Positions 13,634 to 34,866 of a stretch of DNA of 64,000 bases are shown in pieces. Under the pieces are notes generated by a model that was not told where the DNA came from, ran no database searches, and saw nothing but the letters and a program-made list of their open reading frames with translations. The position numbers were made by a program, and so were the translations under genes. How positions within the stretch are numbered: position 1 is the first letter of the stretch; the number at the start of each line of letters is the position of its first letter. The DNA is from Amphiscolops sp. MND2022. Lineage: Eukaryota. The DNA lies in NCBI GenBank assembly GCA_964187785.1, contig OZ076409.1, positions 7,070,001 to 7,134,000 on the forward strand, given 5' to 3'.

Positions 13634-15580
13634 ATGACTGTCTGTGAAAATGCACAGAAAGAAAACGAAGACCAAAACAACAATGCGCATGTAAACAACC
13701 TGCAAAACACCCGTCCAACTTCTAACAGCTTTGAAAAAGGATTGGAACCCGGAGATGTGATTTGGGCCAAAGTGTCTCATACCAGTTTTTGGTGGCCGGC
13801 GGTTGTAATATCGGATTCTCAGTCAACGTCAGAAAAGGACAATGCTATCAATGAAATCACCAGCAAGCAAAAGCAGTACCACGTTTCAACATTAGGTGCT
13901 TCTGAAGACCCCCTGGAATTTCACTGGGTCAAACCCACTCAAGTTGTCAAGTACAAGTCGTCTTATGACTACCAGGCGCTCAGTACCAAATCACATAAGC
14001 TTCGCAACGAGAACGAAAGCACAGTGATTCCTAAAGAGTTGCGACAACGTTGGCGACGCGCTAATATTGATGCCATTGAATTGAAAAGCACGTTGGACCT
14101 CAAATGTCGGCTGGAGAAGTTCAAAGGTGGCTTCAAACAACGAAGATACGCTCTTCCCGAGGAGGCCGTGAAGACATTGCATTTCGAAAGGAAAACAGAT
14201 CAAGCGTTGCCATGGAGATGTCGGAAAAACTGTTCCTTGATACGAGCATTGCGCCATGTCCGCAAACGCAAGTACGGAGATTTGAACTCGGACAGTGCCG
14301 ATTCTTCCGCCGACGAGTCGTTGCAATGTCCTTCGCCCTCTGTTCGATCGGAAGTTTCAGATGACTACAGAAACCAAACGAGTGAAACTGAAACGGTTCT
14401 GAGTGACAACAGTTTGCTGGAACGAAAGAAGGCAAAGCGGAAACTCAAGTCACTGTCAACTGATCTCGCGCCTCAAGAAACTACGTCAACGTTGGAAGTG
14501 CTCTCCAAAGATCCGGAAATGCTGGAAAATGAAACCAAGAAAAGAGCCAAGTTTAGATGGCGCGAGCGCTCTGTCCTGGCATCTTACGAGTGGTCTGACT
14601 TCATCAAAGAGCCAAGCTCGTATAAAAATTGCGTCTGTAGGTTATGTGAAACGAAGGGGGACCTATTGTTATGCAAAACATGTGTCAGTTTCTATCATCG
14701 CAGTTGCTATAGTTTGACCTACCCGAAGAAAACAATTGGTGATGCGATTAGTTTTATGTGCCTAGATTGTCAGGAATCCTCAGTAGCTTGTTTTTCATGC
14801 GATGAATACATCACAGATCTCACACACGAAAGCGTCAAGCTCTGTTTAGTCAAATTCTGTCAGAAGGCGTACCACGAAAAATGCATTCAAAAGTATAAAG
14901 TGAAACTAGACAAAGATTTGGAAGATGCTCCAAGTGAGAAGAGTTCTAAGTTTGTTTGTCCAAGGCATGCGTGTGCCTCGTGCTACACCTCAGACCCGCA
15001 CGATTCCAACTTTTCTCAGGGAAAATTCATCAAATGCCACCGATGCCCTCTGGCATACCACACCAATAACGACGACATTTGCATTCCCGCTGGCTCCAAT
15101 ATCCTGTCAAGCACCTATTTGGTTTGCCCATTGCATTTTCCATCCTCAAGTGTCAAAAAAATCAACGTCAATTGGTGTTTCTTTTGTTCCTCGGGAGGCG
15201 ACTTGGTATGTTGCGAGTACTGTCCGGCTGCGTTCCACAGATCCTGTTTGCCTGAGGATGAAGAAATTCCAGACGCAAACCACTGGCTTTGTGAGAACTG
15301 TCGTTGCGGAAGCTTCCCGAAGTACGGAGACACTGTTTGGGCAAAACTTGGCCTCTACCGCTGGTGGCCTGCAAACATTTCCTGGCCTTGGTCTATTCCT
15401 AATTCTGTCATGCGCGCCCCAAACCACATGGGCCAATATGTCGTGGAGTTTTTCGGAACTCACAATTTTTCCTGGTTGCCCGGAGACCGTGTGTTTCTAT
15501 TCGAGGAAGACGACGAAAAGAAAACCAAGGTTGCAACTTCCTTGGGTCTTAACAAAAGCTTCGAAATTGGCATGAAGGAA
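13634..15580 (+). CDS. NSD: NSD/Mes-4-family histone H3K36 methyltransferase, coding segment 1 (PWWP1, PHD fingers, PWWP2)
   Basis: PWWP motifs GDVIWAKVSHTSFWWP and GDTVWAKLGLYRWWP...VEFFGTHNFSW; Cys/His PHD fingers (CRLC..CKTC..YHRSC; NVNWCFFC..GGDLVCCEYCPAAFHRSC). The ATG follows acceptor-like tttcagttag. Homology ends at the MITE starting at 15581; the exact donor is uncertain. Confidence 0.93.
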
Positions 15581-15934
15581 CAGAGTTTTGAATTCGTTGA
15601 TCAGCGATTCAGCGAATTAGCGGCGACGCAGAATTTTTTCAGCGATTTTACTAACGGTTCAAATTAGCGGCAACTGATAGGTTGTCCAAATACTAAATTT
15701 CCTCGAAAAATGGACTGTTTTAAAATGAATTTCCAAAAATTCCAACTCTTACACTTGTAAAACTCACACAAAGTGAGAAATTCTATTCTTTTTTTTCTTG
15801 CAAAAATTGGAATTTTGAAACATACTTGAATTCAAACACTTGATAGTTTGAAAAAAAGTTTTTTAGCGACATAGCGATTTTGATATTAGCGGATTTAGCG
15901 ATTAGCGACAAAAATTAGCGATATCAAAACTCTG
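15581..15934 (+). mobile_element. hAT-like MITE (family CAGAGTTTTGA) inside NSD coding sequence
   Basis: TIRs CAGAGTTTTGA / TCAAAACTCTG; perfect 8-bp TSD TGAAGGAA at 15573-15580 and 15935-15942. Confidence 0.93.
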
Positions 15935-15942
15935 TGAAGGAA

Positions 15943-16618
15943 ATAACTGCTGCTTACAAAGCGCAGTGTTTGCGAAACGAGGAAAAGGTTCTTGAGGTCC
16001 AGAGAAAACAAGACAACGCGTCCAGACCTGCGAGCTACCGATACCTGTCACAAAACAGGCCGGTTCATCCGGTGAAAATCCGGACGACAACTGTCGATGA
16101 ATCATCCGTATGTTCGTGTAAAGCCACCGACCCAAACCCATGCGGACCGGATTCGAATTGCATGAACCGGATAACCTACATAGAATGTCATCCGGCATCG
16201 TGCCCTGCTCTGGATAAATGCCAGAACCAGAGGTTCAGAAATTTCGAGTATGTGAACACGGAAGTCTTCAAGTCCACCAACAGAGGCTGGGGTCTTCGTG
16301 CAATGGTAGATGTCAAAACTGATGTGTTCATTGGCGAGTATTGTGGAGAACTCATAGATCGTGCTGAATGTTCTCGAAGAGTGACCCAACAAAATTTCAG
16401 CCAGAATTACAACTTCTATTTCTGTGAACTGGATAAAGACAGAGTGATTGATGCTTCGAAGAAAGGAAACCATCTGAGATTTTTGAACCACAGCTGTGAG
16501 CCCAATTGCACGACGCAAGTTTGGCTGGTTAATGGCGATTTCAGAGTCGGTGTTTTTACCATTCGCGACATCGGTGCTAACGAAGAGCTAACGTTTAACT
16601 ACAATTTTGAAGCTCTTG
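15943..16618 (+). CDS. NSD: NSD coding segment 2 (end of PWWP2 helix, AWS, SET domain)
   Basis: AWS CSC..CGPDSNCMNR..IECHPASCP..CQNQRF; SET RGWGL, FIGEYCGELI, RFLNHSCEPN, ELTFNY; canonical donor CTTG|GTAAGT at 16619 (phase 1). Start given as the base after the second TSD copy. Confidence 0.93.
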
Positions 16619-27536: not shown

Positions 27537-27850
27537 AATACTGTCTCAATCTTCCTGATGAAAAGGACGAAACTGGCGCTGGCGATATCAGTGAAACTTC
27601 GCATTCGAAACAGGGTTCGCATGTTTAAAACATGCCGTGTTTTAAACGCGTTTTAAACATGTTTTAAACAGAGTTTTAAACATGACAAAAACCTTCATTT
27701 CTTTCAATTGTTTGTAGTCGGCGCTTTTTGCTTTTAAGGAAAAATGCCCGACTCTTACAGTGACCTTTTTTCTTCAGACTACAGACCTCACACTGATCGG
27801 TCCACTTTTTAAAGAAACTACTGAAACCACTAAGGCCAAGTCCGGCCAAT
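27537..27850 (+). repeat. Local duplicate of NSD exon end plus adjoining MITE/HINE (copy of 29583-29899)
   Basis: Near-identical sequence from AATACTGTCTCAATCTTCC to GGCCAAGTCCGGCCAAT. Confidence 0.92.
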
Positions 27851-28452: not shown

Positions 28453-28755
28453 GTGAAACGAAGATCCGTTGTTTTTGTGGTGCCGAGAGCTGTTCGGGAT
28501 ACATCGGCAGCAAATCAAAATCCACTGCTGACGCTTCCGCTCCTGTTGCTCAACAGCGATCAAACCCGAGAGGCAGAAAACCGAAGCTGAAATCGTCCAG
28601 CATCACGAACAGTAGTTCAAACGCCTCGTCTGCTTCGTCAACCAATGAGAGTGAAGATGTTTGTTTCCGATGTGACGAGGGCGGAGAATTGTTGATGTGC
28701 AGTAAGCCGAAGTGCTCCAAAGCTTACCATTTGGAGTGTGTCGAAATGAAGGAAG
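28453..28755 (+). CDS. NSD: NSD exon (post-SET, PHD5 N-part)
   Basis: Acceptor tttttgtttcag| with phase 1 matching the 16619 donor; CFCGAESCSGYIG post-SET; EDVCFRCDEGGELLMC..CSKAYHLEC; proposed GC donor AAG|GCGAGT at 28756. Confidence 0.9.
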
Positions 28756-28774
28756 GCGAGTGTGTCGAAATGAA

Positions 28775-29418
28775 GGACCATGTCATCTATCCCCCCCAGG
28801 TACACCTTGTTGGGAATCCCCCCCATCCAACACGAAAGCACATTTTGTTCTTGAATAAAAATATTTCACTAATAAGAGAATATCATATGAATGTATATAC
28901 AGTCAAACTCGGATAAAAGAAACTCATTGGGCGGTTAGAAAAGTGTTTTTTATTCATAGTTCCTTTTATCAGTTGTCATATTAACGTACGTAGAAAGTTT
29001 GTCTTGCATAAAAAAGGAGTAGTGAAAACAATGCTTATATCCGAATGTTTCTTTTATCCGTGTTTCTTTTATCCGAGTTCGACTGTACTTAGAGGATTGT
29101 CTCTACAACTGTTTGGACACTTCATGTAAAAAATTACCATAATTTTTTGATATCATTGTCCAAAATAGCAGAAATTCACGTTTGGAACAAGCGAAAATCG
29201 TATAAAAAGCCCCTATTTCAGCGCAAATTTTATCCGTTATAAAATCTAATGAGCAACTTTTAATTGACAGTCAATGTAATGGATAGGATTATGTCGACAT
29301 CAAGTATTTTATTGGACCAAATTTTCAACGCAAGCGGTGTCGACATAATGGTATTTGAACCTTCTGTCTTATTTCCCCCGCCTCAGTTAGGGGAGGGGAG
29401 AAATAGGTGACATGGTCC
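28775..29418. mobile_element. GG..CC-terminated MITE (GGACCATGT family) forming most of an NSD intron
   Basis: TIRs GGACCATGTCATCTAT / ATAGGTGACATGGTCC (15/16 match); internal sequence matches the reverse complement of 52315-52767. Confidence 0.9.
28900..29085. mobile_element. TA-TSD Tc1/mariner-pogo-like MITE nested in the 28775-29418 element
   Basis: TA|CAGTCAAACTCGGATAAA ... TTTATCCGAGTTCGACTG|TA; the empty site is visible in the 52315-52767 copy. Confidence 0.9.
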
Positions 29419-29420
29419 AG

Positions 29421-29660
29421 GCGAGGTTCCCAGAGGTCGATGGGACTGTCCCTGGCACTATTGCGACATTTGCGGGGCCAAATCTGTGTACCATTGCAGT
29501 AGCTGTTACAACTCAGCATGCGATCAACATTACAAGGGTCTCATTATTGTCAGCGATCTGTCAACAGGGGTGCTACAATGCAAATACTGTCTCAATCTTC
29601 CTGATGAAAAGGACGAAACTGGCGCTGCCGATATCAGTGAAACTTCGCATTCGAAACAGG
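29421..29660 (+). CDS. NSD: NSD exon (PHD5 C-part and C5HCH)
   Basis: After ccag| the frame reads (G)EVPRGRWDCPWHYCDIC..YHCSSCYNSACDQH, the NSD PHD5-C5HCH signature; proposed donor CAGG|GTTCGC at 29661. Confidence 0.88.
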
Positions 29661-30114
29661 GTTCGCATGTTTAGTACATGCCGTGTTTTAAACGCGTTTT
29701 AAACATGTTTTAAACAGAGTTTTAAACATGACAAAAACCTTCATTTCTTTCTTCAATTGTTTTTAGTCGGCGCGTTTTCCTTTTAAGGAAAAATGCCCGA
29801 CTCTTACAGTGACCTTTTTTCTTCAGACTACAGACCTCACACTGATCGGTCCACTTTTTAGAGAAACTCCTGAAACTGATAAGGCCAAGTCCGGCCAATG
29901 CAAACTTAGTGCAAAGGGTCCACCCTTTCATTTTTTACTTTTTAAAGGTAACCTACAAAACCGGAAAAACTAAAGGGTCGATTTTTTCGGCACTATGCGA
30001 CATTTTCCGAAAGAAAAAATATTTTTAAAAATTTGAAAAAAAGTTTTGCGCGTTTTGAGCCTTAGATATAGCGCCGACTTTAGACGTTCTCGTCTTGTTT
30101 TATTCCGAACCCTG
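29657..30114. mobile_element. hAT-like MITE (CAGGGTTCG family) inside NSD coding sequence, with nested HINE at about 29762-30099
   Basis: TIRs CAGGGTTCG / CGAACCCTG; perfect 8-bp TSD ATTCGAAA at 29649-29656 and 30115-30122. Confidence 0.9.
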
Positions 30115-30123
30115 ATTCGAAAG

Positions 30124-30437
30124 ATGGCAACTTGGACGTTGATGAAATTGCTAAGAAGTGTTTGAACAGTTTGTCCGAGAGTCTCATCAATATGCTACAC
30201 TTGAACGTGAACTTGAACGATTCTAAAGAGGCTGGTGCTACTGAAAAGAAGGCTAAAGAGTTTTGCATCGATTCAGACTCCGAACCTGATTGCGACAATG
30301 CTCCAGAGACGGAAAATGAGTCACCCGCCGAGAAAACATTGGTCGAAGCTGCTGCTGCAAAATCAGCCGGAACTGAAAATCTACGCTCCGAGGAAACTGA
30401 GCTGAAAGCAGAAACTTTATTGAGCCCAGAGTTTTGA
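30124..30437 (+). CDS. NSD: NSD probable terminal coding exon (acidic tail)
   Basis: In frame with the previous exon once the 29657-30114 MITE and one TSD copy are removed (..SHSK/DGNLDVDEIAKK..); acceptor AAAG|AT phase 1; stop TGA 30435-30437. Confidence 0.72.
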
Positions 30438-30737
30438 CACCGCTAATTAGCGAATTAGCGGTCTTGCAGAATTTTTTCCTGGAAAAAAATTTGAAAATTC
30501 CTCGGAAAATACACGGAGTTTCAAAGTGAATTTCATAACATTCCAATTCTTACCTCTGCAAAACCCACACAGTATGAAAAATTTTGGTCTTTTTTTCTTG
30601 CAAAAACTGAATGAAGTCATTTTAAACATTCTTGAATTAAACGTTTACTAGCTTGAAGAAAAAGATTTTCAGCGAAATAGCGATTTTGAAATTAGCGGTT
30701 TAGCGATTAGCGAAAAAAATTAGCGATGTCAAAACTG
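30427..30737 (+). mobile_element. hAT-like MITE, CAGAGTTTTGA family, overlapping the NSD stop codon
   Basis: TIRs CAGAGTTTTGAC / GTCAAAACTG; TSD ATTGAGCC/ATTGAACC. Confidence 0.88.
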
Positions 30738-34619: not shown

Positions 34620-34678
34620 GTTGAGTTTCAAACTCAGAAAGCATTTTGGGTCGAGTGAGACGCATATTTATTGTTCAG

Positions 34679-34856
34679 CAAGTAGCAGCCCTCACCCCGG
34701 AACAGATAGCAGACTTCAGAGTGGCCTTCGACACTTTCGACGTTGATGGATCCGGGTCCATAGACGCAGACGAGCTCAAGACAGTCATGAGTTCCATGGG
34801 CAAAGAGATGTCCAAGAAGGAAATCGAGGAACTCATCAAAAACGTCGACGAAGACG
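34679..34856 (+). CDS. Calmodulin-like EF-hand protein, exon (EF1, start of EF2)
   Basis: ttgttcag| then QVAALTPEQIADFRVAFDTFDVDGSGSIDADELKTVMSSMG..IKNVDEDG; donor G|GTTAGA phase 1. Confidence 0.9.
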
Positions 34857-34866
34857 GTTAGAAATA

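Follow-up and report, generated by a model that had tools for sequence, protein, structure and literature searches.

The host gene and its insertions

The 64-kb window, by which we mean the whole stretch of DNA that was analysed, contains a gene for an NSD H3K36 methyltransferase, with the PWWP, PHD, AWS-SET-post-SET and PHD-C5HCH arrangement of that family (Table 1). Its closest named relative was XP_075262920.1 (P0030) from the acoel Convolutriloba macropyga, which was 67% identical over the SET exon and makes an acoel the probable source of this genome; protein searches returned no protein of the host species itself among their matches. There were also two NSD paralogues with long open frames, at 42% to P0030 versus 56-62% for the host gene. 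The intron after exon 2 appears to be common to the relatives of this gene.

The last coding exon is interrupted by an element of 458 nt, which is flanked by an 8-bp target duplication (TSD) and bounded by 9-nt inverted ends (TIRs), and three other insertions were found in the same gene. All of the Pfam domains lie upstream of the element. When the insertions were removed, the gene encoded 1159 aa with no internal stop and could be aligned along P0030. Two gene calls, P0032 and P0036, taken as single genomic frames, run uninterrupted across the insertion site, and the tail after the element was identical to P0036 at 48 of 101 residues, including an 18-residue identical run. Because these relatives are uninterrupted and the tail is homologous, an intron made by the element would most likely represent a gain.

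Table 1. Positions, within the window, of the NSD exons, the insertions and the predicted splice features
Feature	Position	Strand	Remarks
NSD exon 1	13634..15580	+	PWWP, PHD fingers, PWWP by alignment
Family B MITE	15581..15934	+	inside NSD coding sequence; CAGAGTTTTGA ends, TSD TGAAGGAA
NSD exon 2	15943..16618	+	AWS, SET; ends at G/GTAAGT donor
Partial duplicate of exon-4 end and element start	27537-27850	+	in intron 2; 303/317 identical
NSD exon 3	28453..28755	+	post-SET, PHD
Predicted GC-AG intron	28756..29420	+	holds third element, GGACCATG...CATGGTCC, 28775-29418
NSD exon 4	29421..29660	+	C5HCH, Pfam E=1.6e-7
Left TSD, ATTCGAAA	29649..29656	+	exonic
Left TIR, CAGGGTTCG	29657..29665	+	CAGG remains in exon; predicted donor GT 29661-29662
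Family A 5' part (element 1-109)	29657..29765	+	94% to typical copy
Predicted new intron	29661..30123	+	463 nt, phase 1; predicted from ends, intact gene and frames
HINE/Helentron-like repeat replacing MITE interior	29761..30099		abundant repeat
Family A 3' 22 nt	30093..30114	+	T-rich tract and right TIR
Right TIR, CGAACCCTG	30106-30114		within 3' 22 nt of family A
Right TSD, ATTCGAAA (30115-30122), plus one base	30115..30123	+	predicted acceptor AG 30122-30123, 9 bases past element
NSD last exon, acidic tail	30124..30437	+	LDVDEIAKKCLNSLSESL also in uninterrupted relative
Family B MITE just before old stop	30427..30737	+	provides present stop codon

The first family B insertion, which is 14.6% diverged from the majority sequence of its family, breaks up a conserved stretch. 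Candidate splice sites for it are an acceptor at 15918 or 15939 and, as donor, a GT at 15530, a GT at 15596 or a non-canonical GA; of the in-frame solutions, none was clean. Removal of the predicted GC-AG intron restores MKEG-EVP, with no indel versus P0036; the element that this intron holds is one we take to be Merlin-like, from its GG ends and 8-bp duplications. A 20-nt direct repeat, GAGTGTGTCGAAATGAAGGA, was present at 28734-28777, directly before the GG-ended element, and puts a stronger GC donor (AAG/GCGAGT) at a place where one would expect a simple target duplication. The donor side of the element in a second host gene, UTP25, also shows a short duplication of this sort (L169:54-70 and 841-857).

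With neutral divergence set at 5%, 0.25% of simulation runs kept the whole coding sequence free of stops, and at 3-5% divergence the tail alone was open by chance in 46-62% of runs. Selection has thus probably acted on the gene from its oldest insertion onwards, which would mean that the interrupting elements are removed by splicing; for the element in the last coding exon, the tail by itself does not prove this.

Composition of the element

Judged by its sequence, the element in the last coding exon is a chimera, in which the ends of a ~450-bp hAT MITE family, here family A, surround a Helentron-like repeat. The family A 5' part had 3 differences in 97 columns versus the family majority. The central ~330 nt belong to another repeat, which had been missed in a sequence-only reading of this DNA, with a AGTCGGCGC / GCGCCGACT subterminal inverted repeat, a 3' hairpin at 30082-30095 and T-rich flanks. 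These three features are also described for the HINE/DINE-1-like Helentron derivatives in PMC4067079, but compared with the mite HINEs of that source the inverted repeat of the inner repeat is shorter (9-11 bp versus 12-15) and nearer the 3' end. The HINE-like repeat family accounts for most dispersed repeats within the window. The earlier reading had also missed the partial duplicate in intron 2, which already holds the inner repeat and therefore postdates the replacement of the interior.

Exact left ends of family A were found 132 times in the genome, versus 0 for a reversed control pattern. A perfect 8-bp TSD was present in 24 of the 28 other copies first fetched (27 of the 28 with at most one mismatch) and in 63 of the 94 copies of a larger set. 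These perfect duplications, together with the lack of reversed-control matches, indicate that the TSD in NSD is not due to chance. The CAGGGTTCG TIR was found at both ends of family A, which thus has the 8-bp TSD and short TIRs of hAT MITEs, whereas in the NSD copy a second repeat has taken the place of the interior; the ends presumably fit the hAT end consensus. A 1.6-kb element with family A ends and the TSD CCCCTAGA (L298:4656-6255) contained a broken transposase remnant, which matched DUF659 (E=1.3e-18) and, below the cut-off of 21.4 bits, Dimer_Tnp_hAT (E=0.0023, 18.1 bits). The family A MITE aligned to the first 114 and last 335 nt of this element, which is likely to be its parent. A PDB search with the transposase remnant gave no match, and no intact transposase was found for family A. 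By these features family A is classed as a hAT-type MITE, derived by internal deletion.

Predicted splicing of the NSD element

In the mechanism proposed here, a non-autonomous hAT-type transposon would have inserted in the last NSD coding exon, supplying the donor GT from its inverted end, and the acceptor AG would lie on the border of the target duplication. The element reads CAGG/GT inward from each end, so that four element bases would be kept in the exon; with the 8-base duplication added, the net change in length would be 12 minus j, where j is how many bases past the element end the AG lies. An insertion with j=9 (NSD, one added Gln) or j=12 (length-neutral) would keep the frame and survive, and other exonic insertions were presumably purged. 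The interior would have been replaced later by the Helentron-like repeat.

The predicted NSD acceptor AG consists of the last TSD base and the base that follows, in the context AAG. The junction of 29660 with 30124 gives ...SHSKQDGNLD..., which is open to the stop at 30435-30437, and the empty site reads ...SHSKDGNLD..., a difference of one extra Gln. In the unspliced frame the sequence reads SKQGSHV and ends at an in-frame TAG (29672-29674); typical family A copies have TAA at the corresponding codon. The AG-free run before the right end of typical copies had a median length of 79 nt (n=71), which would make the AG at the TSD edge the first available acceptor. The TIR donor is weak, with 4.5 of 9 pairs to the 5' end of the genome's standard U1, and five presumed natural donors had 5-7.5. 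A changed U1 as the explanation for the weak donor was not supported; the U1 5' end was standard in 8 of the 11 copies seen. At least 21 matches to U1 exceeded the Rfam cut-off (L286-L297), many of them on C12 and some with changed 5' ends.

The sequence-only reading had given a phase-1 donor in the TIR at 29661, a phase-1 acceptor at the TSD edge at 30123, converting SKDG to SKQDG, and the unspliced stop at 29672-29674; all of its coordinates were reproduced. The element is very probably spliced out as an intron, and splicing at 29660/30124, which would make the TIR donor and the TSD-edge acceptor the ends of a new intron, is probable. The claim of intron gain is well supported, if indirectly, by the uninterrupted relatives, the intact gene and four like exonic copies, with splicing itself as a prediction from sequence.

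Survey of family A in the genome

The survey covered most family A copies among the matches listed, which included 100 of the 132 exact left ends. A total of 102 distinct insertions with a paired duplication were kept, 89 of which were found regardless of AG. The 76 of 271 ends that had no strict partner were checked by relaxed pairing and downstream frames, and insertions were assigned to exons with the help of a small Markov model, Pfam and inspection by eye. Among the matches listed, five of the 102 paired insertions were in coding exons, so that ~95% of copies were not in exons. The five hosts were NSD, UTP25 (C4, near 86,195,820-86,197,024), a DHFR-like gene (C4, near 4,838,960), the last exon of a MAPK-type kinase (C4, near 84,039,380) and a gene of no assigned family (L204; C3, near 92,545,500).

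The four exonic copies besides NSD were found independently, and all had CAGG/GT geometry with the AG at j=12. All four would stop within 20 codons if unspliced, and the predicted change after splicing was none, Q to R, T to Q and K to Q. Among the 168 non-exonic background ends, 36 had an AG at j=3/6/9/12 and 17 at j=12, a distribution from which the four exonic copies differed (Fisher P=0.0026 for j=3/6/9/12 and 0.00017 for j=12). The pair that was anchored by Pfam at the site, the only two copies of which this was true, gave P=0.049 alone. When three loci with open frames, no AG and no Pfam match (L045, L060 and L085) were counted as exonic, the result was 4/7 (P=0.052); a further locus, L083, had an open frame and j=12 and was outside the five counted as exonic. 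Over all copies, a frame-restoring AG was not enriched, being found at j=3/6/9/12 in 18 and 24 of 94 ends versus 19-25 in shifted controls. Non-exonic j=12 was mildly raised (17 versus a mean of 9.2; P=0.013, uncorrected), which may reflect target preference or missed exons.

The usual predicted outcome in exons is length-neutral (AG at +12), from which NSD departs with one added codon (AG at +9). The strongest case is that of UTP25. Positions 15-114 of the Pfam domain Utp25_C lie before the insertion and 116-190 after it, the gene was a single match in the genome, and the spliced peptide would be identical to the empty site, the protein being truncated otherwise. The donor side of this copy has been remodelled by nested insertions, and UTP25 is presumably essential, from yeast. 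The exons next to the kinase copy matched Pfam Pkinase only, and we take the gene to be MAPK15-like. No relative of the L204 host gene was found by protein search. The NSD, DHFR-like, kinase and L204 elements were mutually similar at E<1e-30; the UTP25 element shares their ends and did not reach E<1e-10 versus the other four.

Several other candidates were rejected as gains: L069 sits in a natural donor, L149 lies upstream of an EMC6 domain, L179 has a natural acceptor inside the TSD, and L165, L183, L236 and L255 are intronic or in a UTR. Family A ends were also seen directly before the natural acceptors of a SIS-domain gene and a WD40 gene (L227:1500-1530 and L255:1500-1530), where such an end appears to be tolerated at the 3' side of an intron.

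Family A would make introns by luck and selection and not by targeting, with most copies outside exons. The suggestion that it is predisposed to create introns therefore holds only as an opportunistic property, given that 5 of 102 paired insertions were exonic and that AG was not enriched overall. The enrichment in exons with frame-restoring AG positions that had been proposed as a genome-wide check was seen in part: the four independent exonic copies were all at j=12, but overall there was neither concentration in exons nor enrichment of in-frame AG.

Family B and other loci

For family B, 30 loci were examined of 76 matches, and a TSD partner was found for 15 and not for the other 15. The 15 TSD-paired copies, chosen for an AG at +12, included none that appeared exonic, and family B was thus not found to be a frequent introner among these loci. 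One aldehyde dehydrogenase exon is split by a family B MITE in which family A and HINE-like copies are nested (L243:607-2018, minus strand); an AG is present there at j=7 (GC donor, exact) and at j=12 (TIR donor, length-neutral). Exonic intron-like insertions of family B are sporadic. The calmodulin-like EF-hand exon at 34625-34861 was rejected as a transposon-end splice, as it has an ordinary G/GTTAGA donor.

Alternative explanations for the NSD element

That one added codon is the outcome, as had been claimed in the form of exactly one codon, is likely, although the donor has only 4.5 of 9 U1 pairs and a second in-frame pair, 29668/30084, would add 17 codons. This pair joins CAT/GTTTAG (29668) to a TAG acceptor (30083) in the inner repeat, and another route would join TCA/GTGAAA (29636) to 30124 with a short deletion. 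Both routes are in frame, the frame from 30084 to 30437 is open, and the donors, with 4 of 9 U1 pairs, are near the TIR donor. Splicing by such a route, alone or mixed with 29660/30124, is nevertheless improbable, in that the T-rich tract between 30083 and 30123 favours the later AG, the four other exonic copies favour the CAGG/GT donor, and the AG at 30083 arrived with the inner repeat and so cannot account for the first survival of the insertion.

Retention of the element is rather less probable still. NSD would then end in SKQGSHV, having lost a dispensable acidic tail after its last folded domain, which would agree with the upstream position of all Pfam domains, with a stop in the last exon and with an open tail being expected by chance about half the time. 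Against retention, only 36 of the 168 background ends have a frame-restoring AG and the tail has the 18-residue run identical to P0036; nor does retention account for UTP25, which is interrupted inside its domain. It is highly improbable that NSD is a young pseudogene or defective haplotype whose role is covered by the two paralogues with long open frames. The coding sequence of 3.5 kb does have as many as four insertions, and none of the splice routes for the family B insertion is clean; yet 1159 codons are without stop or frameshift, with the oldest insertion already 14.6% diverged from its family's majority sequence, and exact or near-exact splice solutions exist for two of the three insertions that interrupt the gene.

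Comparison with known introners

With splicing at 29660/30124 as the preferred reading, family A is an opportunistic hAT introner family, the mechanism of which is known. The introner-type geometry recognised in the sequence-only reading matches introners described in PMC9860276 and PMC11282704, where TIR/TSD introners have a donor brought by the element and an acceptor co-opted from the TSD or the neighbouring exon. On the predicted introns, family A reaches the four genes of the definition available from PMC12130899, that is, at least four similar introns in non-paralogous genes, with the similarity extending to the boundaries and not into the exons. Concentration in exons with frame-restoring sites, which marks an introner in the strong sense, was not found for family A.

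Transposon-made introns are known but rare in animals. Family A would show a stage before the specialised introner, an ordinary hAT MITE with a donor in its end, in which the rule of 12 minus j filters the exonic survivors and predicts exact junctions in five genes. The family lets one gauge how weak a donor can be and still be accepted by an animal spliceosome, and how far ordinary transposon traffic contributes to intron gain where a genome is rich in repeats. More tentatively, this acoel lineage may gain introns from several unrelated DNA-transposon families simultaneously, with three of the four NSD introns transposon-made; CAG(G/A)GT hAT ends would act as ready donors, a target-site bias for AG at +12 would offset the four kept bases, with a length-neutral outcome even in a core gene such as UTP25, and the weak donors would be taken by standard U1.

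The 2022 survey reported introners in two animal groups (PMC9860276), and in the accessible portion of that source Hofstenia appears only among the genomes of its table. No acoel is named in the introner main texts searched or in 12 of the 14 supplementary files of PMC12130899. No paper joining hAT and introner, or on intron gain in acoels, was found among the papers listed in the literature searched, which had subscription journals outside its coverage. The lineage is probably new, intron gain of this kind being apparently unreported in acoels.

A family described from Aureococcus sp. (Fig. 2F of PMC9860276) has an 8-bp TSD, as does family A, and leaves four element bases in the mRNA, as is predicted for family A. 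In the Aureococcus family both splice sites lie in the element and 12 nt are added, whereas in family A the AG comes from the target and 3 or 0 nt would be added; family A is also small, with ~95% of its copies outside exons, and has an animal host. The introns described for Fritillaria in PMC11282704 have non-canonical ends, while those predicted here are GT-AG or GC-AG. The introners of tunicates and sea urchins, as presented in PMC12130899, are transposon-made introns in marine animals, as is predicted here.
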